Shown: positions 1,900-36,918 of the stretch, piece by piece
Numbering within the stretch: the first letter of the stretch is position 1
Layout of the letters: every line of letters starts with the position of its first letter
Virus record (IMG/VR): IMGVR_UViG_3300045988_143600
Strand: one strand, 5' to 3'
Length of the DNA: 37,650 bases
Source of the DNA: a virus
The notes under the pieces: model-generated
The model's database searches: none
Told to the model about the DNA's origin: nothing
Seen by the model: the letters and a program-made list of their open reading frames with translations, nothing else
Program-made: the position numbers and the translations under genes

Positions 1900-2064
1900 T
1901 TATTTCTTGTCTACAATTGAGCATTCATTGCATTCTCCGTTACTGTTGCAAATATTATCACAATAGCCGCATTTATCGCAGTACGGACAGTCATCACAAC
2001 TCATTTTCATAAAAAAGGCACATTCTGCGCTGCCTTTCATAAAACATTCAAAATTATTATGCAT
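1900..2064 (-). CDS. Cys-rich small protein (54 aa), below the ORF-track cut-off
   Basis: Hand translation gives MHNNFECFMKGSAECAFFMKMSCDDCPYCDKCGYCDNICNSNGECNECSIVDKK. The start overlaps the stop of the upstream ORF (ATGCATAA). It resembles the ORF at 9778..9948. Confidence 0.45.
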   Translation of the reverse strand: MHNNFECFMKGSAECAFFMKMSCDDCPYCDKCGYCDNICNSNGECNECSIVDKK

Positions 2065-2275
2065 ATTTAGTCGCCTTTACTTTCCTCGGCTCCTCGATGC
2101 GTACCATGTCTATCCAGCGTATCTTATCAGTATATCTATGTACAAGGCAAAGCTGCTTGTCCGTCGCCTTCGAAACCATCCAGTCCGCAGGATCAAGCTT
2201 GTAATACGCTATTATTCGTTTCTGAGCTTTGGTGGGATTTTTTCCGTGCTTCATTCTTTTTGTCCTCCGTTTCAC
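2057..2275 (-). CDS. Small basic hypothetical protein
   Basis: 72-aa ORF immediately downstream of the MuB-like gene, with a Lys/Arg-rich N-terminus. Confidence 0.5.
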   Translation of the reverse strand: MKRRTKRMKHGKNPTKAQKRIIAYYKLDPADWMVSKATDKQLCLVHRYTDKIRWIDMVRIEEPRKVKATKYA

Positions 2276-2278
2276 TTT

Positions 2279-3202
2279 TTATACCGCCATATCCATATAT
2301 TTAGCGATTGCAGACAATCCCTTGGCGGTCACATTGCCGTTATCGAGGGCGTTGGAGTATAGATTGACCGCTCCTCTGATAGCCTGTGGACTTTGAGCGA
2401 TACACAGTAAAAATTCAACAGCAGCAGTGTCCTCTCTGATATCCGGAAAGAGCATTTCGATGTCGCTCTTCTTTATCTGCTTAACGCTGTAAAACCGGGT
2501 ATTCTTCGTCCTGTTGCGTATCTGTGCAAACTCCGCTTTCTGCTTTCCGCCAAGTCTGCTTACCGTGGTTTCGTTGCCGACAAAGCATATTCCAAGGGTC
2601 TGTCCCTTTTCGTCAAAGCAGTCGCAAAGGCTTCGGAGAGTATCAATGGCATTTCTGGTGAGATGCTGGGCTTCGTCCACGATTATCACCATGCCGTCCG
2701 AAAGCTTTGACGAGATTTCCAGCCAGAGTCTGCTCACAGAGCCGGAGGATACGTTCAGCTTAGAACCGATAAGCTCCAGCACGGATTTTGATGACTTGAT
2801 GCACGGATTTACCGTTATGTATATACAGTTTGTGCCGTGCTCACGGTAATACTGCCTGCAAGCCTGTGTTTTGCCTATACCTGCGTCACCGCAGGCTATG
2901 GCAAGACCGCCCTGAAGCTGACAGTTGCGTATGATCTTGTACACGTTAGACGATATTGACGTTTCCTTATAGTCTGTGCCGACATAGATTTCAGCTGCAG
3001 CCTGCTTGGTTACAAAGTATTCAATTACTTTTTTCATCTGCTTATCTACATCGCCGTTGTAGGTACCTGACTTAATTGCAGAGTATGAGCTATCGGATAT
3101 ACCAATCTTTTTGCAGACTGCAGCCGCAGATAGATTTTCCGAGTACTGCAGCTGTTTTATCTGTTCCAATGCCCACTCCTGTTTAGCTGTTAGCTTTTTC
3201 AT
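2279..3202 (-). CDS. MuB-like AAA+ ATPase (transposition target-capture protein)
   Basis: N-terminal HTH-like region, Walker A GDAGIGKT and Walker B IIVDEAQHL. It sits immediately downstream of the DDE transposase. Confidence 0.8.
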   Translation of the reverse strand: MKKLTAKQEWALEQIKQLQYSENLSAAAVCKKIGISDSSYSAIKSGTYNGDVDKQMKKVIEYFVTKQAAAEIYVGTDYKETSISSNVYKIIRNCQLQGGLAIACGDAGIGKTQACRQYYREHGTNCIYITVNPCIKSSKSVLELIGSKLNVSSGSVSRLWLEISSKLSDGMVIIVDEAQHLTRNAIDTLRSLCDCFDEKGQTLGICFVGNETTVSRLGGKQKAEFAQIRNRTKNTRFYSVKQIKKSDIEMLFPDIREDTAAVEFLLCIAQSPQAIRGAVNLYSNALDNGNVTAKGLSAIAKYMDMAV

Positions 3203-3205
3203 TTA

Positions 3206-5224
3206 TTAATCACTCCTCCATTTATTCTTCCGCCTCTCGGCGTTTTCGTTCATTTTATCTATATTGACCACAATATCGTCTCCGGAAGCCTTTGATATAC
3301 TTTCCGGTTCATTATCAGCTCTTATCATAATCACATTGGACGGCATAACGATCTTAAAGCTCTGCTTACCATGTGCTGCCTTGAGAGCGGCAGCCTCCAT
3401 AAGGTCGATCTTATGCTCTGAGTTTAAGCCATCTGTGATATTCTGGGCCTCGGCTTTAATAAACCGTTGTACTCTGCGCTGTAAAGCCATTGCATCGGAA
3501 ATCTCTTCCTTGCTTTCGGTGATGTAATCTATAAGCAGCTTGTCTGCACATTCCCAAGTCCAAAGGTAACGGTCCGATTTATCGTAAACCCTTACGCTTC
3601 TAAGATCGGCGGGATCGTATCTTACATAGACCTCCTCGCCCAGGTGACGGTAAGTGTTTTCATAGTCCATAAACCAGACCTTTTCGCCGGATATTTCAAC
3701 AAATACGCCGTTGCGCTTGATCTTTTGTACCCTTGTTGATCTCATAAGCATAAGATTAAGTTCGGCTTCCGGAGCTTTGCGTATTCCTACAGACTTTATA
3801 TCCATATTCCATACGTCGATACGACTCATTCCTTTGTACTTTGTCTCAGCTCCGCCATATTCCTGCATATTAAAATCACCGTCAATATACATATCAATAT
3901 ATTCTCTAATCTCAAAGTCGCAGGGAATCTTGCCTTCTTTAATTCTACGCTTAAGGCTCTCAGGTCGCTGCATAATAGTGCCGCCGCAGTAACCTTCAAA
4001 CATTCTTGCAAACTGCATTGTGACCGTGCTAAATGTACGCTCAATAGGCTTTGCTTTAGCGTTACGGACGATTGCGTTATGCATCGTGATTCCAAGCCTT
4101 TGGAGTATTGTCGGTGGTTCGATCTCAGGGTTATCGGTTTTCCTGCTTCGATGACCTTTTCCGCCAACGTCATGGGTCATAAACTCTCGACCGTTATCAA
4201 AATATACGGCTTTCGGAATGCCAAATCGCATAATTCCATGCCTTAATGCGATGATTGTTGACTGGGAGTTCGGACTGTCGCATATATTCCAGCCGACCAG
4301 CACTCCGCTTTTGGCATCCAAAAAGGCTGTAAGGTACAGCCTGTGGATCGTGCCGTTATTTTCATCGTAGGACTGTATATCGAACGTGTGGTTATCTGCG
4401 ATCCAGACGTCGTTAGCGTGGAGACCGTCGTACATACGGCTGATATATGGCAGGCATTTATCTTTCATAGCCTTATCGCCGTCGCGCATATATGTAAGCA
4501 CGGCTTGTGGTATTTCCGACTTTATATGCCGCCTGAAAGTATTGTCTGACGGGAAGTTTGATACCATTGACGGATACCACTCTTTTGCACATTCAAGCGT
4601 TAGGTCGTAACAACGCGAAACGGTAGGTTTGTTTTCGGAAAGATAGAAATAGCAAAACTGCTCCCACAGCTCCGGTGGGATACTGCTCTTACCCTTATTG
4701 GCTCCGCCTCGATTTTCACAAAGCCCCTGCAGATTATTATTTCTGTAGGCTGCATACTTGCGGTATAGTATATCCACCGACACTTTGATATCATTATGCT
4801 CGAGCTGACACTTGCCGACGTAAAGCTTATCCACTTCGGTTTTCTTTCCGGGGTATTGATCCCGGTAACGCTGCCAGTCTCTGAGGATATCTACCCAGAG
4901 TGCGATTTCATCACGCTCATCTTCGGAAAACTCTTCGATTGACGTTTTCACAGGCTTTGACGTTTTCACAGGCTTTTTGGGCTGTTTTAATGCATTTTTA
5001 ACAGGCTGTGCAACAAGTTCTAAGCCCGCTTCCGCTCTTTTCTGAGCATAGTATTTTGCCTGCAGGCCTTCGGGGAGTGATGATATTGGGATCATATATT
5101 TAGGACGGTTCCTGTCGTTGATTTCGATATTGCATGACAATTTTCCGTCCTTGCACAGTTTCTTTATATATCGTTCACTGCAGCCTTTAAGATCAGCAGT
5201 TTTGGCAACCGTCAAATATTCCAC
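3206..5224 (-). CDS. MuA-like DDE transposase (rve/integrase core with N-terminal DNA-binding domains)
   Basis: 672 aa. N-terminal HTH (LTVAKTADLKGCSERYIKKLCKDGKL). Catalytic-core motifs VWIADNHTFD and VYFDNGREF. Has the size and MuB-adjacent position typical of Mu A. Confidence 0.85.
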   Translation of the reverse strand: MEYLTVAKTADLKGCSERYIKKLCKDGKLSCNIEINDRNRPKYMIPISSLPEGLQAKYYAQKRAEAGLELVAQPVKNALKQPKKPVKTSKPVKTSIEEFSEDERDEIALWVDILRDWQRYRDQYPGKKTEVDKLYVGKCQLEHNDIKVSVDILYRKYAAYRNNNLQGLCENRGGANKGKSSIPPELWEQFCYFYLSENKPTVSRCYDLTLECAKEWYPSMVSNFPSDNTFRRHIKSEIPQAVLTYMRDGDKAMKDKCLPYISRMYDGLHANDVWIADNHTFDIQSYDENNGTIHRLYLTAFLDAKSGVLVGWNICDSPNSQSTIIALRHGIMRFGIPKAVYFDNGREFMTHDVGGKGHRSRKTDNPEIEPPTILQRLGITMHNAIVRNAKAKPIERTFSTVTMQFARMFEGYCGGTIMQRPESLKRRIKEGKIPCDFEIREYIDMYIDGDFNMQEYGGAETKYKGMSRIDVWNMDIKSVGIRKAPEAELNLMLMRSTRVQKIKRNGVFVEISGEKVWFMDYENTYRHLGEEVYVRYDPADLRSVRVYDKSDRYLWTWECADKLLIDYITESKEEISDAMALQRRVQRFIKAEAQNITDGLNSEHKIDLMEAAALKAAHGKQSFKIVMPSNVIMIRADNEPESISKASGDDIVVNIDKMNENAERRKNKWRSD

Positions 5225-7183: not shown

Positions 7184-7212
7184 ATTATAACTAGATTTTT
7201 TCTAATTGTCAA
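7184..7212 (-). promoter_or_regulatory. Early promoter (consensus sigma-A type), minus strand
   Basis: The minus strand reads TTGACA-(17 nt)-TATAAT exactly, with the -35 at 7207-7212 and the -10 at 7184-7189. It faces the early operon. Confidence 0.65.
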
Positions 7213-7280: not shown

Positions 7281-7982
7281 TTGGATATTTTGGATAGAAT
7301 AACTATGCTTTTAGGCAATCGAGAGCAAAAAGAATTGACTAATTACCTGAAATTAAATAATGTTGCTTTTTCAGAATGGAAGTCTGGGAAAAGCAAATCA
7401 TATAGAAAATATCTAATTGAAATTGCTGAATTTTTTGATGTTTCAATAGATTACCTTGTTTACGGCAAAGAAAAAAGCTCACCAGCGGAACAGTTGACCG
7501 ATGATGAGCAAGAGTTACTTACATATTATAAGGAATTAGATTTAATGAAAAAGGGTCAAGTCCTCGAACGTGCCAAGGTCCTTTTTGAGCAGTCAAAAAT
7601 ACCATTAAAAGAGCTTGAAAACAGTGTTTTCATAGAGTACTATTCGTTGCCTGTCAGTGCCGGAACTGGCGTTGATCTGGATGGCTGCGAAAAAGGTATG
7701 TTGGAGGTTAAGAAAACGCAGCTCACTCTTGAGGCTAATTTTGCTCTAAGAGTGTCTGGCAACAGCATGGAGCCTGTATTCCACGACGGAGACGTAGTTC
7801 TGATAGCCTCGCAGCCATCTGTTGAGATCGGCGAGATAGGCATTTTTATACTTAACGGGGAAGGATTTATAAAGAAGTTCGGCGGAGATCGCTTGATTTC
7901 CCTTAACCCGGATTATGATGATATTCCGCTGCATGATTATGATAGTATCTATTGCCGGGGAAAGGTTATTGGAACTGTATGA
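7281..7982 (+). CDS. CI/LexA-type repressor (N-terminal HTH, C-terminal S24 peptidase)
   Basis: HTH region at the N-terminus. The C-terminus LRVSGNSMEPVFHDGDVVLIA...GEGFIKKF carries the Ser/Lys dyad context of S24 autopeptidases. Transcribed divergently from the early operon. The TTG start at 7281 is uncertain; ATG at 7305 is an alternative. Confidence 0.8.
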   Translation: MDILDRITMLLGNREQKELTNYLKLNNVAFSEWKSGKSKSYRKYLIEIAEFFDVSIDYLVYGKEKSSPAEQLTDDEQELLTYYKELDLMKKGQVLERAKVLFEQSKIPLKELENSVFIEYYSLPVSAGTGVDLDGCEKGMLEVKKTQLTLEANFALRVSGNSMEPVFHDGDVVLIASQPSVEIGEIGIFILNGEGFIKKFGGDRLISLNPDYDDIPLHDYDSIYCRGKVIGTV

Positions 7983-10259: not shown

Positions 10260-11114
10260 CTGATTAAAATTGCTATGTACATAACGCTGGGTAGTTGTTA
10301 TATCAACGTGTCCGAGCAATGCTCTAAGGGTTTCAATATCTGCACCGCACTGAATAAGATACGTAGCATAGCTATGTCTAAGCTTGTGCGGGGTGAGATA
10401 CTGTAAATCAGGATACTTTGTTTTTTGTTGCTCATAGAACGTTCTATAGAGCCTGTTATAACGTCTAAGAGATATTACTGTATGCGTTATAGGTGAAACG
10501 AACAGAAAGCCGTCTGAAACGTCCTGAGAGCGTATCTGATGAAGAATAGCTATTGCATTACTATGCAAGGGGATAAGCCTATCACGGCGAGATTTTGTGG
10601 TCTGTACAATCCTATCACCGCATGAAGTATGTACGAGTGTCTGACAAACTTTAAGATATCTGTTATCAAGGTCAATGTTATCCCAACTAAGAGCGAGAAG
10701 TTCACCACGGCGGAGACCTGTCTACAAGTCAAGCTGAAACATTCTGCAAACTCTACTATCATCATCAAAGAGATGTACGAGATTATCGGGGCTAAAATAT
10801 TCAGCTTCTTTTTTTATACGTTTTGGAGGTTTAATATAGTCGCAAGGGTTTTTGTCACAATAACCATTAACTATAGCTTCACGGAATACACGTTTAAGTA
10901 AGAAATATGAACGTCTTTGGCGGTCATTACTGTAAGATAGGGTGGATTTAAGACAATTCTGAATATCAATAGGCTTTACGCTCAGAAGCTCCATATCGGC
11001 TATATAACCGAAGTGTTTTTGATTTATATAGTAATAGTCCTTATAGCAATCATAGGCTATCACATCAACGCAGTATGCGTTATAGAACATCTCAAACCAT
11101 TCTTTAAAAATCAT
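10224..11114 (-). pseudogene. int: Tyrosine recombinase/integrase interrupted by a single in-frame TAG (10719..10721)
   Basis: The two track ORFs, 10722..11114 and 10224..10568, are in the same frame. Reading through gives ...MFQLDL*TGLRRGELLALSWDNIDL...HKLRHSYATYLIQCGADIETLRALLGHVDITTTQRYVH, which contains the R...HxxR...Y catalytic signature. Confidence 0.75.
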
Positions 11115-12112
11115 AGGACATCATCATTTCCATTCTCTTTAAGATATTGAAGTATATCATTGCAGTTCTTTTCGACTTGACTTGAAAAGGTGAAACTACT
11201 TTCATACTGATAACAGACATTAGCACGAGGGGGAGAAACTATCGGCAAATCGTCTTTAAAGTCTGAATTGCAAAAGATCTCTTTAGTTTTGCGGACAATG
11301 TTCTTGCTACTCCAGAAGAATTTGCCGAATATCTTCTTTACGTCCTTTGTTATGTACTTAGTGACATAGAAAGCTAAATTAGACATTTGTCCGTAAGTCT
11401 GAATAGCGGTTGAGAAACCATAACGCCAATCAGACACGTTATACACAACAGGCAAATCAGATATATCACAGCCGAGTTTATCACATATATGCAGGCGCTT
11501 TATAGTATCTATTTTAAGGGGCTTGTCATGACCCTTAACAAGACGTGTACCACTATCAACGAACTTAAAGTCACAATCGTTTATAAGGGCGTGGCAATGT
11601 ATACCGCCTTTTTTGTGATACTCAGGAACTAAGATATATTTAAGCCCTTTTCTACTAACTGCATTTTCAAGCCATTTTTTCAAAGGCTTTATGACTTCTT
11701 TAGGGTTTGTGCGGTCAAGGTTATCGCCATTAAAGGTAATAGTAAGGAAGTATTTCCAATCATTTTGATAAACTATATCAAAGATACTTTGCTTTGCTCT
11801 TTGAACACTATCGGAACGAACTTCACCGCTTTGTGACTGCTTATCTTTAAACTTACGAGTATCAAGCATATCAAGCATTATGTTTCCGTTTTCGTCCTCA
11901 TACTCAAAATAACATATGTAATTTTCACGAGCCGTTTTAAGTTGCTCTTGTCTTGAACGTTCGTCAATACTATGCTCATGCTTGCAGTGATACTCAAATG
12001 CAGGGTCTTTAAATATGTGTCGATCAGAACGTGTTATAGTGTAACTGCCGTCACGATATTCCTTTATCTTTGTATTGCACTTGACCTCTTTAGAAGACAT
12101 TTTTAGGGACAT
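11111..12112 (-). CDS. HUH rolling-circle replication initiator (Rep)
   Basis: Motif 1 is FLTITF, motif 2 (HUH) is GGIHCHALI and motif 3 is YVTKYITK. GGGAG RBS. Confidence 0.75.
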   Translation of the reverse strand: MSLKMSSKEVKCNTKIKEYRDGSYTITRSDRHIFKDPAFEYHCKHEHSIDERSRQEQLKTARENYICYFEYEDENGNIMLDMLDTRKFKDKQSQSGEVRSDSVQRAKQSIFDIVYQNDWKYFLTITFNGDNLDRTNPKEVIKPLKKWLENAVSRKGLKYILVPEYHKKGGIHCHALINDCDFKFVDSGTRLVKGHDKPLKIDTIKRLHICDKLGCDISDLPVVYNVSDWRYGFSTAIQTYGQMSNLAFYVTKYITKDVKKIFGKFFWSSKNIVRKTKEIFCNSDFKDDLPIVSPPRANVCYQYESSFTFSSQVEKNCNDILQYLKENGNDDVL

Positions 12113-12148
12113 TTATATCAACTCCCATTTATTAGGTGAGTGCTTTTT

Positions 12149-12223
12149 GTGGCTAATATCAAGTAATAGCCACACGCACCGCAGGGCGGCGCAAGCGCTC
12201 GCCCCTGCGGTCGCTCGTGGCTA
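12149..12223. promoter_or_regulatory. GC-rich hairpin cluster, candidate rolling-circle origin or packaging hairpin
   Basis: Alternative stems TGTGGCTA (12149-12156) / TAGCCACA (12167-12174) and TAGCCAC (12167-12173) / GTGGCTA (12217-12223). The second pair encloses CCGCAGGG (12179-12186) / CCCTGCGG (12203-12210). This is the only GC-rich stretch in an AT-rich element, and it lies between the Zot-like stop and the Rep start. Confidence 0.5.
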
Positions 12224-13015
12224 TACGCCACGCCTTTTTCGCAGGTTTCTGCTTGTCTTTCTATCGTGCATGATGTCACTTGTGACATCTACTCCACGAT
12301 TGGCAAGTATTTCCGTGTCGCTGATGTACTCCTTATCAAGCATATTATCTACAAGCTGAGAAGTATCATATAGCTGTCGACTCTGATTAGTCTGCAAATA
12401 CAAACGGCTGTAAAGCTTTTTCGGCATATATGACTTATTCTCCGTATACGCTTCATACTCGTCTATATCATAGGTTTTAACCTTAATAAGACGTGTATAA
12501 GGGTGATGGAATGTAGCACGGCACGTTGACACTGTAGCCGTTATATCTCGTATCTGTTTATCAAGTAGATTAAATCGTTGCACTGTAGCAAGTATCATCA
12601 TTTTGCGCTTTCTACATTGACAAAGGTGCTGAAAAAGCGGTTTAGAGACGGCTCTTTTACCACCTGAGAAATCTCGTGAATTGAAGATAGTGCCTATCTC
12701 ATCAATTACGACTATACAATTCTTAGGAGCGTGCAGGATATCTTGTGCGGAATTAAGCTTATAAATATTCGTCCACTCAGGGAAGTTTTGAAGATTGATA
12801 TTTGTAAGTATAGACAACTGAGGATAACGCACGCAATAGTTATATGCTATCTGAGCAAGGGTTGAGGTTTTACCTGTTCCGAATTTACCGGTATAAAGAT
12901 GTATGCCCCAACCTTGAAAGATAGCGGAATTATTGAAGTATGCACCAAAAAGGTGGTCATATACCTCATAGGTGATAAAGGGCGGTATTTGTTTTATGTA
13001 GTCAAATATAATCAT
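12221..13015 (-). CDS. pI/Zot-like P-loop morphogenesis ATPase
   Basis: Walker A is GKFGTGKTS and Walker B is CIVVIDEIG. Size and position after the small TM genes are as in inoviruses. No clear C-terminal TM segment was seen, so the assignment is by family resemblance and context. Confidence 0.6.
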   Translation of the reverse strand: MIIFDYIKQIPPFITYEVYDHLFGAYFNNSAIFQGWGIHLYTGKFGTGKTSTLAQIAYNYCVRYPQLSILTNINLQNFPEWTNIYKLNSAQDILHAPKNCIVVIDEIGTIFNSRDFSGGKRAVSKPLFQHLCQCRKRKMMILATVQRFNLLDKQIRDITATVSTCRATFHHPYTRLIKVKTYDIDEYEAYTENKSYMPKKLYSRLYLQTNQSRQLYDTSQLVDNMLDKEYISDTEILANRGVDVTSDIMHDRKTSRNLRKRRGV

Positions 13016-21616: not shown

Positions 21617-24580
21617 CTATACTTTTATCGGCGATTTGCCGTTGCGCTTGATAAAATCATTTATATCGTCAATAACGATCTGTGACAGCACTCTGCCCTT
21701 TACTTCGATTGGTATCGTTACGCTTATTTTCTGATTGCCTACAGCTCCGCCGTAAACAGCAAGCGCCTCAAACAAAGCCTGCTTGATCGTATCCAGCGGA
21801 GCTTCGATGTTTGTGCCGCGTTTCTGGTCGCCGAGAACCGCAAGAAACTCGGAGTTCGGCGGAATTACCGCGCCGGTGGCGAGCATTGGAATCTGAGGAA
21901 CTGGTATAGGGTCATAGTCCCAAAACTCATCAAATGGTGTAAAGCCTGCTATTTCAATATCACGAATATCATTAAGTATGCCATTAAGAAAATCCAGTGG
22001 AGTAGAAATAACTTTATTTATTCCGCCAATTATGCCGTTTACAACCGTTGTGAATACTCCTGTTATACCCTCTTTGATACCGTCAAAAATTTTGCCACCA
22101 GTCGAAAATACGTCCTTAACTGCTTGCCAAGCCTTTGAAAATATATCTTTAAACCAATCAGCTACCTTAATAAACGGTGATTTTATTGCAGTCCACAAAT
22201 CCCTGAAAAATTGTGCTGTAGCCGAAAACGCCGATTTTATATTTGTCCACGCAGTTGTAAATATATCTCCAAACCAACTTCCTACTGCAGAAAAAATGTC
22301 TTTGATTCCTGTCCACAGATTTGAGAACCAACCTATAACGGCATTCCAGACAGACAAAATACCGTCCCAAGCTGCTTGGAAAATTCCCGTAAACCATTCT
22401 GCCACGACGGCAAATACATCTTTTATGCCTTGCCATATTCCGGCGAAAAAGTCTTTAATTGATGTCCAGACCTCTGTTACCCAGTCTACAAATTGCTGTA
22501 TGGTCATTTTAAAGCTGTCCCACAAATCAATAAAAAACTGTTTTACTGTTTCCCAATTTTTGTACAGCAATACGCCGATAGCGATAAGCGCACCGATTCC
22601 TAGACATACAAGTGTGATTGGACTCGTCAAAAAATTAACTGCTACACCAAGTGCAGTAATTAACGGTGTCAATACACTTGTTCCTGCCGCCAATGCGGCA
22701 AATGCACTTACTACGCCTTGAATTATTCCGGATATTGCAAATGCCGATCCCAAAGTCCCAACTACAACAGCAAAATTTTCGACAGCAGTCTGATGATTCT
22801 TTATCCAGTCACTAACCCCATTTAAGGCTGATGTAATACCTTTCAACGCGCCTACTATAATACCTCCGGTCCATGTTGCAATAGGCTTCAAAAATTTATC
22901 CCACAGCCATTTACCCATAGGTTTTAACGCTGAAATTGCTGAATCAAGAACTTTTATAGCTGCCGCCAGCAAATTAAGAAATGTTGGTATCAAAGTACTT
23001 ATAGTCCATGATGCCATAGGGAGCAAAATATTATCCCAGAACCATTCGATACCGTCAAATATGTCGGCAGTTAAAGGCTTTAATGCGGATGTTACATTTT
23101 CAAATGATGTAATGAGAGGTGAGAAGTCAATGTTCTGCGCCCATTCAACAGTGTCTGCCGTTATGTTTTCAATTGTGTCGAGTATATCATTAAAAATATC
23201 AAGAATGTCCTGAATAATTTTTGTACCACTGCTATCAGACCAAGCGGAGGAAAAATTGCGTGACACATATCCGATTGTATTATTAATGTTTGTCCATATA
23301 CCGAGTAAATGTTCAGAAATTTGTTCGCCCGTTCCGTTACTCCAAACATCGGTGAATGATCCGCCTATGCTTTTGATAACACTCCATACACCCTCGAAAG
23401 CAAATCTCATACTATCTGTTACCTTGACTCCATTTTTATCCCAAGCTTGTTTAAATGGCGTAAAAATAGTATTAAAAGATGATTTTACCCAATAAAAAAA
23501 ATCTTTAAGCTTTTTATCGGCATCAGATGTATCAACATCTACAGTAGTGGAGATCGTATTGCCGCTTAGAGTACCGACCACTGGCGATGCATTTGTATCA
23601 GATGAGGAACTGTTGTCCGCCAGCTTATTTATCTGATCAAAGCTTGCAAGTGCATTTTCTTGAGCCTCGACAGTAGCTTCAGCCGATGTTGCCATATCGG
23701 AATAATTTTCCACCGCCTGCGAAGAACTTTCAGCAACTCCATCTGTTGTATTCATCAGTTTAATTCCAAACACCTCAGAAAGTGCTTTAACTGCTGAATT
23801 AGCAACAGCTGTCAAACTTTGCAATTCCGCTGTTATGTTTTTTACAACTGTTACAGCACCAGAAAGAACAGGCTGTCCTATTACAGCAAGCAACTGTTTC
23901 CAAGACTCTTTCAGATTACCGATGACATTTTCCCAGCCGTCTGCTTCTCGCGCGGCTTGTCCCTCCGCTCCAGAAAGAGCATTTGCATCCTTGACCATTT
24001 GCAATAGTGTAAGTTGCTTCTGAGCTTCGGATAATTCCATAAATGATTTTCCATAGAGTTTATTAGCCGCTGTGTTTCGCGTAGTTTCTGTACAACTCAA
24101 ACCCAAAGCAGCATCGTTTTCAAAGTTGCCTTTCAAGAACGATTTTAGGCTTTCTGCAGTATCTTCAAGGCTTCGATCGTAATATGCCGCACTGTCTGCT
24201 GTTACCTGCAACGCTTCTTCCATCATTTTTAGAGCACTAACTGAATCCATACCCGTAGTTTTAGCAAAAGCATAAATAGATGTGCCTACATTTTGAAGTC
24301 TTGTCTGAAGAATGCTACTGTTATCAGCTACACTTTTCATAGCATTATCTGCAGCAGATTTTAAAGTTCCAAAAGTCTGTTGCATTTGAGAATTTGCAGC
24401 ATTTATATCTGCAGCAGCTTCAAGAGCTTCTTTTCCACTGAACACAGTACCAAGTGCTGCACCCATTTTTAAAACTATATTTCGGAGATTATTAAGCTGG
24501 TTACCTAAACTGTTTATACCTTTGGAAAATCCTTTTGTATCTATTTTTGTATCGAAATTAAGTCTGCCGTCAATTGCCAA
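21617..24580 (-). CDS. Tape measure protein
   Basis: 987 aa. N-terminal helical region, central glycine/hydrophobic TM-like block (…GALIAIGVLLY…) and repeated W/F-x-D/N-I-F motifs. It is the largest gene in the tail module. Confidence 0.9.
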   Translation of the reverse strand: MAIDGRLNFDTKIDTKGFSKGINSLGNQLNNLRNIVLKMGAALGTVFSGKEALEAAADINAANSQMQQTFGTLKSAADNAMKSVADNSSILQTRLQNVGTSIYAFAKTTGMDSVSALKMMEEALQVTADSAAYYDRSLEDTAESLKSFLKGNFENDAALGLSCTETTRNTAANKLYGKSFMELSEAQKQLTLLQMVKDANALSGAEGQAAREADGWENVIGNLKESWKQLLAVIGQPVLSGAVTVVKNITAELQSLTAVANSAVKALSEVFGIKLMNTTDGVAESSSQAVENYSDMATSAEATVEAQENALASFDQINKLADNSSSSDTNASPVVGTLSGNTISTTVDVDTSDADKKLKDFFYWVKSSFNTIFTPFKQAWDKNGVKVTDSMRFAFEGVWSVIKSIGGSFTDVWSNGTGEQISEHLLGIWTNINNTIGYVSRNFSSAWSDSSGTKIIQDILDIFNDILDTIENITADTVEWAQNIDFSPLITSFENVTSALKPLTADIFDGIEWFWDNILLPMASWTISTLIPTFLNLLAAAIKVLDSAISALKPMGKWLWDKFLKPIATWTGGIIVGALKGITSALNGVSDWIKNHQTAVENFAVVVGTLGSAFAISGIIQGVVSAFAALAAGTSVLTPLITALGVAVNFLTSPITLVCLGIGALIAIGVLLYKNWETVKQFFIDLWDSFKMTIQQFVDWVTEVWTSIKDFFAGIWQGIKDVFAVVAEWFTGIFQAAWDGILSVWNAVIGWFSNLWTGIKDIFSAVGSWFGDIFTTAWTNIKSAFSATAQFFRDLWTAIKSPFIKVADWFKDIFSKAWQAVKDVFSTGGKIFDGIKEGITGVFTTVVNGIIGGINKVISTPLDFLNGILNDIRDIEIAGFTPFDEFWDYDPIPVPQIPMLATGAVIPPNSEFLAVLGDQKRGTNIEAPLDTIKQALFEALAVYGGAVGNQKISVTIPIEVKGRVLSQIVIDDINDFIKRNGKSPIKV

Positions 24581-24598
24581 TTATATCAGCCTCCTTTC

Positions 24599-24627
24599 TT
24601 GACAAAATCCTCCATACGCTGTATAAT
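24599..24627 (+). promoter_or_regulatory. Consensus sigma-A promoter driving the plus-strand moron
   Basis: TTGACA (24599-24604), a 17-nt spacer, then TATAAT (24622-24627). It overlaps the RBS region of the divergent tape measure gene. Confidence 0.7.
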
Positions 24628-24656
24628 GAAAAAAATACATAATGGGAGGAAATGTT

Positions 24657-25334
24657 ATGTTTTGCTTTAAATGCGGCGCAGAAATATCCGATGAATCAGA
24701 TTTCTGCATGATATGTGGAACTGAAATTCTGCATCACAATAAAACCGAAATTGAAGAAGTCAACTCGATTTCAACTATACCTATGAATGCCACAATAAAA
24801 TCGGCTTTTGTGTCAACTATAATAGTTTCGGAAACGGAGATCTCATACAAAAGTGGGCTCAAAAGCGAAACTATAAAAGTATCCGACATATCAGATATTA
24901 GATATACAGCCGGAACTCCTTCCGAGAACGGTCGCTTGTTTATAACAGCAAACGGAAAATCATATAACGTAATGTTTTTCTTTAACAATAATAAAAAAAT
25001 TGCTGAGTTATGTGGTTACTTCTCCGCACTTAGCAATAATACTTTTATACCGATGGAAGTAACCACATCAACTTCATCACAAACAGGCGAAACACAACAT
25101 GAAGAAAAAACGTTATCAAAACGTCAGCGTATAAAGGAAAACAAGAAAAACGGTATTGCTTGCTGTCCTAAATGTGGAAGTACTTCGCTTACGGCAAACA
25201 AAAAAGGCTTTGGAGTCGGAAAAGCAGTCATAGGAACTGCTGTTGCCGGTCCAATAGGTCTTGTTGCCGGAAACAAAGGAGCAAAAAAAGTTCGTATAAC
25301 TTGCCTTAACTGCGGTAATCAGTGGTGGGCGTAA
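24657..25334 (+). CDS. Double zinc-ribbon protein with a glycine-zipper segment (moron)
   Basis: The GGAGG RBS lies inside the track ORF, so the start is taken as ATG 24657 (MFCFKCGAEISDESDFCMICGTEI). The C-terminus reads CCPKCGS...GVGKAVIGTAVAGPIGLVAGNKG...CLNCGNQWW. It is the only plus-strand gene in the late region. Confidence 0.65.
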   Translation: MFCFKCGAEISDESDFCMICGTEILHHNKTEIEEVNSISTIPMNATIKSAFVSTIIVSETEISYKSGLKSETIKVSDISDIRYTAGTPSENGRLFITANGKSYNVMFFFNNNKKIAELCGYFSALSNNTFIPMEVTTSTSSQTGETQHEEKTLSKRQRIKENKKNGIACCPKCGSTSLTANKKGFGVGKAVIGTAVAGPIGLVAGNKGAKKVRITCLNCGNQWWA

Positions 25335-25335
25335 T

Positions 25336-25368
25336 AAAAAAGTCAGTCCAAACGGGCTGACTTTTTTT
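25336..25368. terminator. Bidirectional rho-independent terminator
   Basis: AAAAAGTCAGTCC-AAAC-GGGCTGACTTTTTTT. It serves both the moron (plus strand) and the Gp15-like gene (minus strand). Confidence 0.8.
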
Positions 25369-25924
25369 ATAACAGATTATTTATAAAATCAAGTTCATCC
25401 TGTTCCTCTGCTGTAAGCTTCACCTTAATATCAATAAGTTCTTTGTTGTTCCGGTAAAAGTCCTGTTCTCCTTTACTAAGTTTTTTATTGTGTGCAAGCT
25501 TATAGCGTATATTTATAACATTACTGTATAAACCCTCACCAATCTCATTAAAAAGGCCTAAAACCGTCCACCAATGCATATAATCAATTTCACGAATTTC
25601 CTTTCCTGCTACCTTATTGAGAGCTGGAAAAATAATCCCTTCATCCTGATCCCAGTTTATCAACGGTTTAGGTTGACGTTTAGATTTTGGCATATCTCCG
25701 CCGTCAAGAAACCATTTGGCTTGTTCTGCCGCTTCGTAAAGATCCGAGTTAGGTATCTGATCGTGATGCTTGTACAACAGTTGTATACATCCATATGTTT
25801 TGGCTTTGTCATTAAGCGTATCGTCATTGCACATAGAAAAAATCAGCAAAGCTACGCGATAATCACTATATATTGAATATATTTTACCGTTGACTGTCAA
25901 AGCTTTAGGCAATGCACCTATCAT
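25367..25924 (-). CDS. Gp15-family tail protein (A118-type phage Gp15-like)
   Basis: ALTVNGKIYSIYSDYRVALLIF...LLYKH pattern. It lies between the tail chaperone and the tape measure. Confidence 0.55.
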   Translation of the reverse strand: MIGALPKALTVNGKIYSIYSDYRVALLIFSMCNDDTLNDKAKTYGCIQLLYKHHDQIPNSDLYEAAEQAKWFLDGGDMPKSKRQPKPLINWDQDEGIIFPALNKVAGKEIREIDYMHWWTVLGLFNEIGEGLYSNVINIRYKLAHNKKLSKGEQDFYRNNKELIDIKVKLTAEEQDELDFINNLL

Positions 25925-30682: not shown

Positions 30683-32353
30683 TCACTTTGGATTACATTG
30701 AATAAGCACGCCCGTTTCAGGATTTATGGATACTGCACATTTATCTGTAACAAATAGCTGAGATATTTTAGGTTTACCATCTTCATCATATAAAATGTTA
30801 CCGTTTTTATCCCTGCTAATTTTGGGTTTCATTGCTTTACCATTGGTCAAAGCATCCTGAATATCTTGAAGTTCAACGCCAAGACGTTTCTTACCCGTAT
30901 CAGGATCTTTGATTACACCAATAACACGTTCAATGAAATGATCCGATTGCCCAGTTATTTCAATACCGTTAGTTGTAGTTAAACCAACAAGACTGTTGTT
31001 AATCTCATTGTGCAACTTCTTATAATGATCGTAACCTACAAGCGGAGAAAATTTTCCCTTTTTTACAGAAGTAATATATGCATTCATCAATTTGCACTCA
31101 GGAGAGTTATTATACTTCATATTTTCAAAAATGTCAAGGCTTTTCGGCGGATTTTCTATGCCGTAGCTTTTCATTTGCTTAACAAAGTAACGATTATTCC
31201 CATATACCGCTTTCTGCGAAACACTCTTGTTAAATCCAACAACCCGAACTCTGTCCTTTTCGGAATAAAGATCGTTCGTATCGCAAAACTCAGACAGCCG
31301 TTTTTCCTTAGTTTTCAGTATAGCCGAGTGGCGTTCAAACTGATTTTGCAGTCTCCGTTTAAGCACCTCGTCTTCCGTCTCAGAGATAGCACCGTCATAT
31401 GCAGCTAAACGTCTTTTTGTAGCTCGTATAGACCGCTCCATAGCACGCTGTTTCTGCGATAATTCATACTGTCTGTTGTTTTCGGTCACGTCAACAGGGA
31501 GATTAGCACGTTCGGAAATTCCCTCGAAAAACGGATAAAAATCATGTCGGCAGTTCCAGCCTTTCAAGCCGTCACCCGTTCCGTAGCCTGTGGCGGTGCT
31601 GAGTTTAGGGTATTTTTTAGATTTGCCCGAAATGCTGTAAACCTTGCCTTGCCATAAAGCGTGTGAGGGACGCGCGCCCATGTGTGCGGTGACCTCAACC
31701 AGATCGCAGTCCATTTCTGCGGCAAGATCAAGCTGCATCTGACCTGCGGTCTGACTTATGCCCGTCATTACCGCACGCCGCACTGCAACGTCTGCCCAGT
31801 CGGTCTTACCCGATGGATAAGTTACAGTCGCAATACCTTGTTTAGCAAGCTCGACAACTGCGTCGTAAATAGCATCCTGATATGTAAAAGCACCGCTTTG
31901 TACCTTTAACCATGCCTTGTCCATAAGATGAGTAACAGTTGCCTGCGAGGACTCTACCATGGACTTACACAGATTTTTTGTCATACCATTTGCATTTTTA
32001 ACGCCTGCCTTAAGCGTGTTGGATAATGCCACCGACCTCAGAGCGGCGGAGCAGTCCTTGCCGTAAGTTCTGTATATCTTGGCGTCGTTGTTGATTGCCT
32101 CCTTACAGGCATCGGTGTACAGCTTTGATATCTGCCGCTTTGATTTGCCTGTAAATTCTGCAAGCATAGCAGTGATCTCTTTTGTAGACATCTTCAACTG
32201 GCTTGCTTTGTACAACTGCCATTCTGCCGAGGGAGTAAGATAGTCCGCTTTAACAAGCTTTTTGGCAATAGACTTGATTATATCAGTCTGTACCTCGCTT
32301 ACAAGATCAATCAAGTCATCTGGCAGTTTTTGTAACGTCTGAGGGGTAAGCAT
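30683..32353 (-). CDS. MuF / SPP1 gp7-type head morphogenesis protein with a roughly 170-aa C-terminal extension (toxin-like)
   Basis: The core carries GWNCRHDFYPF, typical of the minor capsid protein 2/MuF family. The extension ends ...GQSDHFIERVIGV...CAVSINPETGVLIQCNPK, resembling small RelE/BECR-fold nuclease domains. Confidence 0.75.
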   Translation of the reverse strand: MLTPQTLQKLPDDLIDLVSEVQTDIIKSIAKKLVKADYLTPSAEWQLYKASQLKMSTKEITAMLAEFTGKSKRQISKLYTDACKEAINNDAKIYRTYGKDCSAALRSVALSNTLKAGVKNANGMTKNLCKSMVESSQATVTHLMDKAWLKVQSGAFTYQDAIYDAVVELAKQGIATVTYPSGKTDWADVAVRRAVMTGISQTAGQMQLDLAAEMDCDLVEVTAHMGARPSHALWQGKVYSISGKSKKYPKLSTATGYGTGDGLKGWNCRHDFYPFFEGISERANLPVDVTENNRQYELSQKQRAMERSIRATKRRLAAYDGAISETEDEVLKRRLQNQFERHSAILKTKEKRLSEFCDTNDLYSEKDRVRVVGFNKSVSQKAVYGNNRYFVKQMKSYGIENPPKSLDIFENMKYNNSPECKLMNAYITSVKKGKFSPLVGYDHYKKLHNEINNSLVGLTTTNGIEITGQSDHFIERVIGVIKDPDTGKKRLGVELQDIQDALTNGKAMKPKISRDKNGNILYDEDGKPKISQLFVTDKCAVSINPETGVLIQCNPK

Positions 32354-35878: not shown

Positions 35879-36361
35879 TCAGATCTTTTCCAGTTCTGCA
35901 GCAACGTCAAAGTAATGACGCCTGCCGTTTATCTCACAGTACAGCGTACAGCGTTTACGCCGCCTGCTGTATTTAACAATGCAGTGTTCTCTGCCTTTGA
36001 GCAGTCCCTCTGTGATAGTCACCTTTCCGCTGTTTATGTAACCACGGCTGACGGTAAGATTTTCGACATCAAGTATCCACCGAAGTCTGACTTCCTCGCT
36101 CATCGGCAGCGGAGTGGGCGGTCTGCCCAAAAATCTCAATACGCCGACAGTATTTTTCACGGTGTAGTAAAGCTCGTCTGTGATGCCTTCACTGTTAACA
36201 AAAACATATGTGGGAAATATCATCCGGCGTACCATGCGCCACACGCCGCCTTTACGTTCCAACAGGTCGTGAGCAGGCGCATAGGCGTTAATATTTTTAT
36301 CTCTGAGAGTGGCAACAACGTCATGCTCTCTGCCGCTCTGAACATAAATAACGTAGATCAT
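35879..36361 (-). CDS. NusG/RfaH/LoaP-like transcription elongation (antitermination) factor
   Basis: NGN-domain pattern YVIYVQSGREHDVVATL...MIFPTYVFV...VGVLRFLGRPPTPLPMSEEV, followed by the KOW-like GKVTITEGLLKGREHCIV. Confidence 0.7.
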   Translation of the reverse strand: MIYVIYVQSGREHDVVATLRDKNINAYAPAHDLLERKGGVWRMVRRMIFPTYVFVNSEGITDELYYTVKNTVGVLRFLGRPPTPLPMSEEVRLRWILDVENLTVSRGYINSGKVTITEGLLKGREHCIVKYSRRRKRCTLYCEINGRRHYFDVAAELEKI

Positions 36362-36906
36362 ATATCGCTCCTTTTCTCCTCAAGGAACTTAGCCACATCC
36401 TTGTAAAGATCGGGACGTTCCCTTGCCATTGCCTCGAACACCATTGACTTGACCTGTTCAAAGCCCGCGTTAAGGATATCCTCGTTTTTCAGATCCATAT
36501 TCTTTTTATACGCCGCAGCCTTTACAAGGCTGGTAGCCTGTTTGAGCAAGGCTTCCGGGTCTATGTTCTTCCATTTTTCTTCGGGAGTGTTCTGTATAGA
36601 TTCCAACACGTTATGCGACAGCAGCCTGATTATTCCCTCGCTGGTATCGAGAGCCGGATACTTGTTTATCTCCTCCATTATGACCCTGAAATTCTCCTGA
36701 GCCATTCTGAGGGTCTCAACAGATTCATTCAGATTTGCGGCGTATCTGCAAACCGAGGATATTGATATGGGCTGATCGGTCTGATCCTTTATATAGTCTG
36801 CGATCTCCGCATATGTAAAATCGGCTTTCATCATATCTTCGACCGTTGCTTTAAGTTCCGGCGACAGCTTGTCTATTTTAGAGTGCTTTCTGCGCTTTCT
36901 TGCCAT
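36358..36906 (-). CDS. Mu gp27-like protein (DUF3486-like; proposed small terminase/DNA-recognition subunit in Mu)
   Basis: The N-terminus ARKRRKHSKIDKLSPELKATVEDMMKADFTYAEIADYIKD matches the gp27 family opening. The ATG at 36906 follows GGGGGTG. Confidence 0.55.
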   Translation of the reverse strand: MARKRRKHSKIDKLSPELKATVEDMMKADFTYAEIADYIKDQTDQPISISSVCRYAANLNESVETLRMAQENFRVIMEEINKYPALDTSEGIIRLLSHNVLESIQNTPEEKWKNIDPEALLKQATSLVKAAAYKKNMDLKNEDILNAGFEQVKSMVFEAMARERPDLYKDVAKFLEEKRSDI

Positions 36907-36918
36907 TATCCGCACCCC

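Follow-up and report, generated by a model that had tools for sequence, protein, structure and literature searches.

A predicted prophage-expressed moron with a conserved zinc-ribbon/glycine-zipper module, antisense to the late operon of a gut phage

Why would the late operon of a gut phage keep, between a Phage_Gp15-family gene and the tape measure gene, a single gene that is read in the opposite direction, and what might its product do? The question is raised by a 37,650-nucleotide (nt) viral sequence, IMG/VR record IMGVR_UViG_3300045988_143600 (the whole stretch is called the window here), in which a plus-strand gene for a protein of 225 amino acids (aa) occupies this slot. An earlier note on this DNA, made from the letters alone, had described the gene as a moron with its own promoter and terminator and had thought a superinfection-exclusion or abortive-infection role plausible. 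Its predicted signals indicate that the gene is very probably an independent unit expressed from the prophage. By analogy with known systems, we tentatively propose that the protein acts in phage exclusion at or after genome entry, from the cytoplasmic face of the membrane.

The moron had been described as the only plus-strand gene in about 21 kb of minus-strand late genes, and gene calls agree; in 8 independent contigs with an identical locus, all other genes from the endolysin to the terminase are on the minus strand. The predicted sigma-70/sigma-A-type promoter in front of it matches the consensus at 12 of 12 hexamer positions, as had been claimed, and this exact 29-nt arrangement is present in three copies in the window, against 0.03 expected from shuffled sequences. 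Both hexamers are also exact in L026, L027, L029, L034, and L036, relatives whose moron proteins are 36 to 76% identical to the window protein, while their spacers and flanking sequences differ. The same promoter arrangement is present in L028, which is almost a duplicate of L027. The −35 hexamer does not overlap the ribosome-binding site of the tape measure gene, as the earlier note had it; it lies adjacent, 4 nt from CCTCC (24590-24594). Of the other two exact copies, one (7184-7212, minus strand) lies between the genes for a CI-like repressor and a Mu-type transposase, and one (31109-31137, minus strand) is inside a 556-aa open reading frame (ORF) of the head module (30683-32353, Phage_min_cap2), where it may be an internal late or constitutive promoter.

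At its other end, the unit is closed by an intrinsic terminator, which lies where the moron and the Gp15 gene converge, between their stop codons. Folding supports its proposed bidirectional character, giving −19.0 kcal/mol (z = −6.7) on the plus strand, where the hairpin is followed by a T-run, and −14.7 kcal/mol (z = −5.1) on the minus strand. The stem pairs 25342-25349 with 25354-25361 within the 32-nt gap between the stop codons, with an A-run on its 5′ side and a T-run on its 3′ side. A consensus terminator scan of the window missed this hairpin, probably because the A/T arms lengthen the stem, and folding recovered it. The hairpin is kept in the same five relatives that keep both hexamers (L026, L027, L029, L034, and L036), and their base changes preserve the stem pairing.

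The start of the gene was placed at 24657, because the in-frame ATG upstream (24642) overlaps the Shine-Dalgarno sequence GGGAGG and because the homologs of the protein all begin with MFC..CG. The GGAGG-to-ATG arrangement is also present in L026 and in the Clostridioides difficile phage phiC2. The protein shows a full-length match to phrog_2546 in PHROGs (E = 1.8e-37), and its homologs comprise 624 clusters.

The distribution of the gene among relatives separates it from the tail genes that flank it. The moron is carried by 20 of 20 near-identical DNA loci, and a homolog is found in the same slot and on the opposite strand in 11 diverged relatives (L026, L027, L029, L034, L036, L039, L044, and L115 to L118), as well as in L028. 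It is absent from five relatives (L023, L024, L025, Eggerthella phage PMBT5, and Ruminococcus phage RG-TP1), in which the tape measure gene comes immediately after the Gp15-type gene. These phages share the head-tail module with the window, with Gp15 proteins that are 49% identical in L023 and L024 and a major capsid protein that is 69% identical in PMBT5, which indicates that the moron is dispensable for virion formation. A tail chaperone or structural protein should lie in the late-operon orientation and be universal among relatives, and the moron is neither; a structural or tail-assembly role was ruled out by the opposite strand, the gene's own signals, and these five absences. The earlier note had named conservation at this position in all relatives, as a structural tail-assembly factor, as what would overturn its reading; the position is conserved within the clade, and the structural role did not hold. 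With its own predicted promoter, its own terminator, and its presence in some relatives and absence from others, the gene has the anatomy of a moron, a reading further supported by homologs elsewhere that lie in lysogeny modules or are flanked by terminators.

The moron is not a recent arrival. Its identity to the homologs tracks that of its neighbors: in L026, the moron, Gp15, and tape measure proteins are 76%, 73%, and 61% identical to those of the window, and the corresponding values are 43%, 51%, and 48% in L027 and 41%, 54%, and 48% in L029. The GC content of the gene is 0.379, compared with 0.362, 0.361, and 0.404 for the neighbors, and its GC3 is 0.31, compared with 0.33 to 0.35. Recent horizontal acquisition was ruled out on these grounds, and the moron is best regarded as an old, vertically maintained resident of its slot within the clade, because its divergence tracks that of its neighbors and its GC content is ordinary. 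The earlier picture of an "inserted" unit thus stands as regards an independent unit and falls as regards a recent insertion.

The slot between the Gp15 and tape measure genes is a cargo hot spot. In L117, it holds three extra late-strand genes (2003-3307), one of which belongs to the Rha family (Phage_pRha), and in L118 an extra 186-aa gene (2959-3519). In L027 (5810-5926, minus strand) and also in L029, the interval that separates the moron promoter from the tape measure gene contains a late-strand ORF of 38 aa with a CxxC...CxxC pattern (MEVFKCEKCGKTLFEGDFKGCIKKICPKCKHKNIIKRK); it seems to resemble Mu Com, but Pfam gave only generic zinc-ribbon matches. The gene itself also contains a junction. 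The DNA of L115 matches the window with 100% identity over the stretch that runs from the tape measure gene to moron residue ~160, beyond which identity is about 60% across the C-terminal module, the terminator, the Gp15 gene, and the major-tail genes. Judged from this alignment, a recombination junction lies inside the moron (25130-25200 in the window), and the conserved C-terminal module seems to be used as a site of crossover between tail modules.

The division of the protein into an N-terminal zinc ribbon, a central beta-rich domain, and a C-terminal split ribbon with a glycine zipper, as read in the earlier note, was confirmed, and the coordinates of these parts are listed in Table 1. The N-terminal ribbon gives the only above-threshold Pfam match in the protein. 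For the middle domain, structure prediction, which the note had called for, points to a PH-like fold. The AlphaFold2 model has seven strands (E45-107) and a helix (H109-120), that is, the seven-stranded beta sandwich capped by a C-terminal helix that is expected of a bacterial PH-like domain. In a Foldseek search against the Protein Data Bank (PDB), ranks 1 to 19 were all PH domains (Rtt106, Pob3/FACT, and the bacterial PH structure 3b77), with probabilities of ~1.0 and E values of ~0.01, the latter limiting the PH assignment to the fold level. The domain matched Pfam bPH_4 only partially and below threshold (15.7 bits against a cut-off of 22.9 bits), and an exhaustive HMMER search recovered 10 matching clusters among 1.84 billion representatives; the fold was used to identify the domain because the sequence search gave so few. 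Some of these clusters combine the PH-like domain with SWIM or SHOCT, and in one homolog, P0124, the N-terminal ribbon and PH-like domain are the same but a classical transmembrane helix at the C-terminus stands in for the C-terminal module. The moron protein has no signal peptide. NCBIfam gave nothing meaningful for it, and literature searches found no description of its architecture.

After the flexible, low-complexity linker, the C-terminal module opens with a basic KRQRIKENKKNG stretch that includes a helix at residues 155 to 164, in which R158 is nearly invariant and N162 is invariant across homologs. The module is about 60 aa long, with the consensus K..RIKENK.NGIACCPKCGSTSLSANKKGFGIGKAV.GA...GPIGLVAGN.GAKKV.VTCLNCGHQWK and 17 invariant alignment columns, and it is always found at the C-terminus. 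Complete-module proteins share 61 to 98% identity across it and have unrelated middles, including PH-like, ribosomal L7/L12 C-terminal-like, SHOCT, and other domains; phrog_3845, -9859, -24502, -6837, and -2242 share only this module with the moron protein. In P0036, P0041, P0052, P0064, P0067, and phage SMO_1P (L030, 3094-3585), a ribosomal L7/L12 C-terminal-like domain (PF00542) replaces the PH-like domain, and a membrane-tethered L12-like domain of this kind might engage translational GTPases. No above-threshold Pfam family, NCBIfam match, or PADLOC match was found for the module, and a PDB profile search and Foldseek returned only generic zinc ribbons, none of them significant. A P-loop reading of its GFGVGKA stretch was rejected on inspection, since the spacing is unlike GxxxxGK[ST] and the module is far too small. 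The module is undescribed, very highly conserved, and widespread in gut prophages.

Several features of the module bear on its location in the cell. The 37 residues between its two knuckles hold a hydrophobic insert of 24 to 25 residues (GFGVGKAVIGTAVAGPIGLVAGNKG in the window protein), whose Kyte-Doolittle hydropathy of 1.56 over 19 aa is the maximum of the protein, and residues 169 to 225 contain 8 lysines and arginines and no aspartate or glutamate. The insert is predicted, with low confidence, to form a helical hairpin. Among 131 proteins with the module, the number of transmembrane segments upstream of it is zero in 123 and two in 6, and these even numbers in 129 of 131 proteins are consistent with both ends facing the same side of the membrane. 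The replacement of the module by a transmembrane helix in P0124 gives further indirect support. Zinc binding requires that the two knuckles come together, and a loop of 24 residues is too short to span the bilayer twice, so that insertion from the cytoplasmic face, either re-entrant or in-plane, would be the simplest arrangement; experiments have established such an arrangement for the LITAF domain (PMC5142333). Taken together, these features make it probable that the moron protein is associated with the membrane through its C-terminal module.

Table 1. Positions of the moron unit, the parts of its product, and other features in the window
Feature	Position	Strand	Remarks
Sigma-70/sigma-A-type promoter, predicted	24599-24627	+	TTGACA 24599-24604, 17-nt spacer, TATAAT 24622-24627
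Shine-Dalgarno GGGAGG	24644-24649	+	7 nt 5′ of the moron ATG; read from sequence
Moron coding sequence	24657-25334	+	225 aa plus stop codon; protein starts MFCFKCG
N-terminal zinc ribbon	24657-24728	+	Residues 1-24, CxxC...CxxC; Pfam Zn_Ribbon_1, E = 1.3e-7, above curated cut-off
Central PH-like domain	24774-25031	+	Residues ~40-125; seven strands plus C-terminal helix; AlphaFold2 pLDDT (predicted local distance difference test) 84-91
Low-complexity linker	25032-25118	+	Residues ~126-154; pLDDT <50 at 126-151
C-terminal module	25119-25331	+	Basic helix, CCPKCG knuckle, glycine-zipper insert, CLNCG knuckle
Glycine-zipper hydrophobic insert	25206-25280	+	Residues 184-208; KK on both flanks
Bidirectional intrinsic terminator	25336-25368	Both	Between convergent stops of moron and Gp15 gene
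Tape measure protein gene	21617-24580	−	phrog_1535, E = 6e-158; divergent from moron
Phage_Gp15-family gene	25367-25924	−	phrog_706, PF06854; convergent with moron; second tail-assembly chaperone position
NusG-like protein gene	35879-36361	−	Pfam NusG, E = 2.4e-15; head of late operon
Mu Gp27-like protein gene	36358-36915	−	Head of late operon
Mu-type prophage left end	2279-5224; 7281-7982; 7184-7212	−; +; −	Transposase, MuB-like, CI/S24 repressor, promoter

The genomic settings of the homologs recur in two places. In the C. difficile myoviruses phiC2, phiMMP01, and phiMMP03 and in phage Maintenon, a homolog lies directly upstream of the tape measure gene on the same strand; that of phiC2 has terminator hairpins on both sides and a TATAAT box, and that of Maintenon is followed by a terminator hairpin. 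In Javan202 and SMO_1P, the homolog is on the strand of the repressor and integrase, in CP51 it is between the endolysin and the integrase, and in TPDSL_ph2 it is on the opposite strand after the endolysin. A survey of 78 loci from species-representative genomes, mostly of Oscillospiraceae, Lachnospiraceae, Ruminococcaceae, and Clostridioides with a few non-Firmicutes, covered 139 immediate neighbors. These neighbors were enriched in Pfam matches to HTH_3 of the Cro/CI type (15), tyrosine integrase (9), Phage_Gp15 (7), ImmA/Peptidase_M78 (6), CI repressor (5), Peptidase_S24 (4), and serine recombinase (3). In at least 11 of the loci, a recognizable tape measure gene was no more than two ORFs away, to the left or right of the homolog and in the same or the opposite direction. 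Lysogeny modules and the flanks of tape measure genes therefore stand out as two hot spots. About 10 to 12 immediate neighbors of module-bearing genes are zinc-ribbon/DZR proteins, which suggests tandem paralogs.

These features can be arranged into a working model. The housekeeping-sigma promoter would drive a leader of about 20 nt, a strong ribosome-binding site, and the 225-aa ORF, and the intrinsic terminator would close the unit. Because the unit is antisense to the late operon, the moron would be on while the late genes are silent in lysogeny and would be overrun once late transcription starts; moron expression and late-operon transcription would in this way be mutually exclusive. The bidirectional terminator would insulate the unit, and the phage NusG-like protein, a candidate antiterminator on our inference, would probably render late transcription terminator-resistant and carry it past the moron terminator. 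The product should fold in the cytoplasm, because it has no signal peptide and has two zinc ribbons. The loop between the knuckles would then most likely dip into the inner leaflet, as in the eukaryotic LITAF domain, and tether the protein to the cytoplasmic face of the membrane, where it may block superinfecting phages at or just after genome injection, for example through the incoming tape measure protein or the DNA end, with the PH-like domain setting the specificity of exclusion. The three parts of the protein diverge independently of each other: P0016 is 100%, 100%, and 63% identical to the window protein in the N-terminal, middle, and C-terminal parts, P0020 is 69%, 88%, and 61% identical, and P0034 is 68% and 79% identical in the terminal parts, with no BLAST match in the middle. 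This uncoupled divergence fits a conflict interface with module shuffling.

A wider proposal can be built on the module, namely, that it is a new phage-spread membrane-targeting or membrane-active domain defining a large family of exclusion or abortive-infection proteins in gut Firmicutes that work at the cytoplasmic face and carry interchangeable sensors on the one conserved module. The PH-like member of this family, kept next to the tape measure gene, would target tape measure proteins or DNA as they arrive, from the inner side of the membrane. We regard this family proposal as doubtful; if it is true, the window protein would be a Gram-positive and mechanistically distinct counterpart of the HK97 gp15 protein.

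Several observations weigh against an exclusion role at the membrane. PADLOC-DB v2 returned no family for the moron protein at E values up to 1, and the GC and GC3 values of the gene, which resemble those of its neighbors, are not those of foreign cargo. Known Gram-positive exclusion proteins such as Ltp and Sie2009 work within the membrane or on its outer side, whereas the window protein is predicted to be cytoplasmic. The minus-strand terminator would hinder the phage's own tape measure expression unless antitermination, an inferred step, relieves it. As for the anchor, the hydropathy of the insert is borderline, an invariant lysine lies inside it, and it was modeled at pLDDT <50. Homology of the module to LITAF was also rejected: the match reached 17.5 bits against a cut-off of 23.8 bits, 9 of 40 module sequences matched, and hhalign against 15 genuine LITAF domains gave a probability of 7.4%. 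The extreme conservation of the module, finally, exceeds what a simple lipid anchor needs and hints at a more specialized function, for instance oligomerization or contact with a host partner.

This conservation leads to a different use of the same parts. In an abortive-infection effector, the PH-like domain or the N-terminal ribbon would sense infection, and the glycine-zipper module would oligomerize into a lesion or pore that depolarizes and kills the cell. The invariant spacing of glycine, lysine, and asparagine is more like an oligomerizing or packing interface than a passive anchor, small residues alternate with hydrophobic ones along both arms of the insert, many putative sensors (among them PH-like, ribosomal L7/L12 C-terminal-like, and SHOCT-containing ones) are found fused to the module, and the prophage context of the homologs fits as well. 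However, a lysogen that made a pore-former constitutively from a consensus promoter, without any evident partner or antitoxin, would put itself at risk; a hairpin formed by the insert would not be long enough to span the bilayer, the structure of the insert is modeled with low confidence, and no abortive-infection model in PADLOC was matched, so that an effector of this type is unlikely, if still with an appreciable chance. The borderline hydropathy could alternatively mean that the protein is soluble, the zinc ribbons binding DNA or RNA with the glycine-rich stretch as a binding loop and the protein regulating phage or host expression. The knuckles match TFIIS, TFIIB, and NrdR-type ribbons below threshold in 36 to 38 of 40 module sequences, and the module and the stretch just upstream are very basic. 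Such a regulator is nevertheless distinctly improbable, because P0124 has a true transmembrane helix in place of the module, six homologs carry a two-helix transmembrane hairpin upstream of it, and the insert, the most hydrophobic stretch of the protein, has a Gly/Ala/Ile/Val composition atypical of nucleic-acid-binding loops.

The moron anatomy and the prophage-module contexts are also compatible with a lysogenic-conversion factor outside phage defense, in which a membrane-tethered adaptor would alter host physiology such as envelope stress, signaling, or sporulation. PH-like domains are generic ligand- or protein-binding modules, and the assembly collection lists the exact protein in 3013 index blocks, a very wide occurrence in gut assemblies that would be compatible with some advantage for the host. 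Such a factor would leave unexplained the recurrent adjacency of the gene to tape measure genes in unrelated phages, where it can lie on one side or the other and point in either direction, and the rapid, uncoupled turnover of the middle domain fits conflict better than housekeeping; we therefore consider it rather unlikely. The same adjacency, recurring in the window clade, the phiC2-like myoviruses, and Maintenon, together with the divergence of the moron in step with the tail module, could instead point to an accessory factor for the phage's own lytic cycle, which would handle the tape measure protein at the membrane, aid injection, or time lysis. This is very improbable given the opposite strand and a housekeeping promoter antisense to late transcription, the terminator insulation even where the homolog is co-oriented with the late genes (phiC2 and Maintenon), the absence of the gene from five relatives with the same tail module, including the isolated phages PMBT5 and RG-TP1, and the homologs found in lysogeny modules.

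The genetic arrangement is not categorically new: the term moron was coined for a gene in this very slot, and the present one is a textbook case. What is new is the protein architecture, unrelated to gp15/YebO, the zinc-ribbon/glycine-zipper module, and the recurring association with tape measure genes. Hundreds of protein clusters, in Clostridia and beyond, contain the module, which has neither a Pfam family nor a solved structure, and the prophage that carries the moron is very common in human gut assemblies. If the module does act in exclusion or abortive infection, it would be a new and easily recognized marker of prophage-encoded immunity in gut Firmicutes, which bears on the host range of phages in therapy and on gut virome ecology. 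The apparent role of the module as a recombination junction between tail modules bears on the origin of phage mosaicism.

The two late genes upstream of the moron slot had been called tail chaperone genes; this label reflects their position, and their matches are to phrog_706/Phage_Gp15 and phrog_11299, both of which are families of unknown function. The major head protein gene is further upstream of the slot, and the late region starts with terminase, Mu Gp27-like, and NusG-like genes and ends with genes for a GH25 endolysin and a Dam-type methyltransferase. In eight contigs (L003 to L010), the sequence to the left of locus position ~1560 (window ~16200) is a different host flank in each case (with, for example, PemK toxin, EAL, MobL, flavodoxin, or ALAD genes), and these differing flanks, together with the Mu Gp27-like gene, suggest that the phage integrates by transposition or uses many sites. 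The left part of the window is the left end of a Mu-type transposable prophage, where the genes for a transposase (HTH_Tnp_Mu_2, rve, and Mu-transpos_C) and a MuB-like AAA protein are accompanied by a CI/S24 repressor gene in divergent orientation. A Rep gene (REP_ORF2-G2P) adjoins a Zot-like ATPase gene (11111-13015, minus strand), and this pair suggests that an inovirus-like element sits between the tailed-phage regions on either side. The 22 contigs with the exact moron protein that were read extend up to hundreds of kilobases, and the index also lists carriers of more than 1 Mb. Near-identical records in the isolated-phage collection are unannotated human-fecal contigs only, and a scan of species-representative genomes found no close copy of the moron protein, the best match being 43% identical.

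The protein is a full-length member of PHROG 2546, and the PHROG families to which it is related are annotated as "unknown function" or "zinc-finger domain protein." At the level of its C-terminal module, the nearest layout is that of the LITAF domain, a zinc ribbon with an embedded in-plane hydrophobic anchor and both halves in the cytosol (PMC5142333). As in LITAF/SIMPLE-like PF10601, in which two CxxC knuckles bracket a hydrophobic stretch of ~22 to 26 residues, the module has two CxxC knuckles on either side of a hydrophobic segment, and PF10601 is the top Pfam match of the isolated module, below threshold and covering both knuckles. However, the insert of the module is Gly/Ala-rich with an invariant lysine, whereas that of LITAF is Cys/Leu/Phe-rich, and the LITAF signature residues (W, IPFC, and D..D.H) are absent from the module. 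On the sequence comparison, LITAF is an analog, and assignment to its family is unsupported.

Among exclusion systems of Gram-positive bacteria, the window protein has no homology to Ltp or Sie2009, which streptococcal and lactococcal phages encode; Ltp is an extracellular lipoprotein and Sie2009 a small transmembrane protein, whereas the window protein is without a signal peptide and should face the cytoplasm. Ltp and Sie2009 block DNA injection, Ltp acting through the tape measure protein, and the genes ltp (of phage TP-J34) and sie2009 sit between repressor and integrase, a position that the Javan202 and SMO_1P homologs also occupy. A site of action on the cytoplasmic face is known from SNIPE, a membrane-bound nuclease defense that catches siphovirus genomes as they are injected and is found in association with tape measure proteins, which shows that such defenses can act through these proteins (PMC13190303); the window protein has no nuclease domain or homology to SNIPE, and the likeness is conceptual only.

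The closest genetic parallel is the gene 15 moron of phage HK97, which lies between the tail chaperone and tape measure genes and whose product, a YebO-like protein of the inner membrane, excludes superinfecting phages with a specificity that maps to the tail (PMC3594210). The window moron lies in the same slot and, like HK97 gene 15, has its own (here predicted) promoter and terminator and is absent from related phages (PMC3594210). The HK97 product is located in the cytoplasmic membrane and blocks genome entry with tail-dependent specificity (PMC3594210), and it is by analogy with this that a similar function is suggested here. The two differ in that gp15 is a small single-helix protein and the window protein has 225 aa, three domains, and two zinc ribbons; no YebO-type family was among its Pfam matches at E values up to 1. 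The window moron is also on the opposite strand, its GC content is not foreign, and its phage resides in a Gram-positive, Clostridia-type gut bacterium. If the exclusion role is true, the idea of a defense moron beside the tape measure gene, known from HK97 gp15, would reach the phages of Gram-positive hosts.

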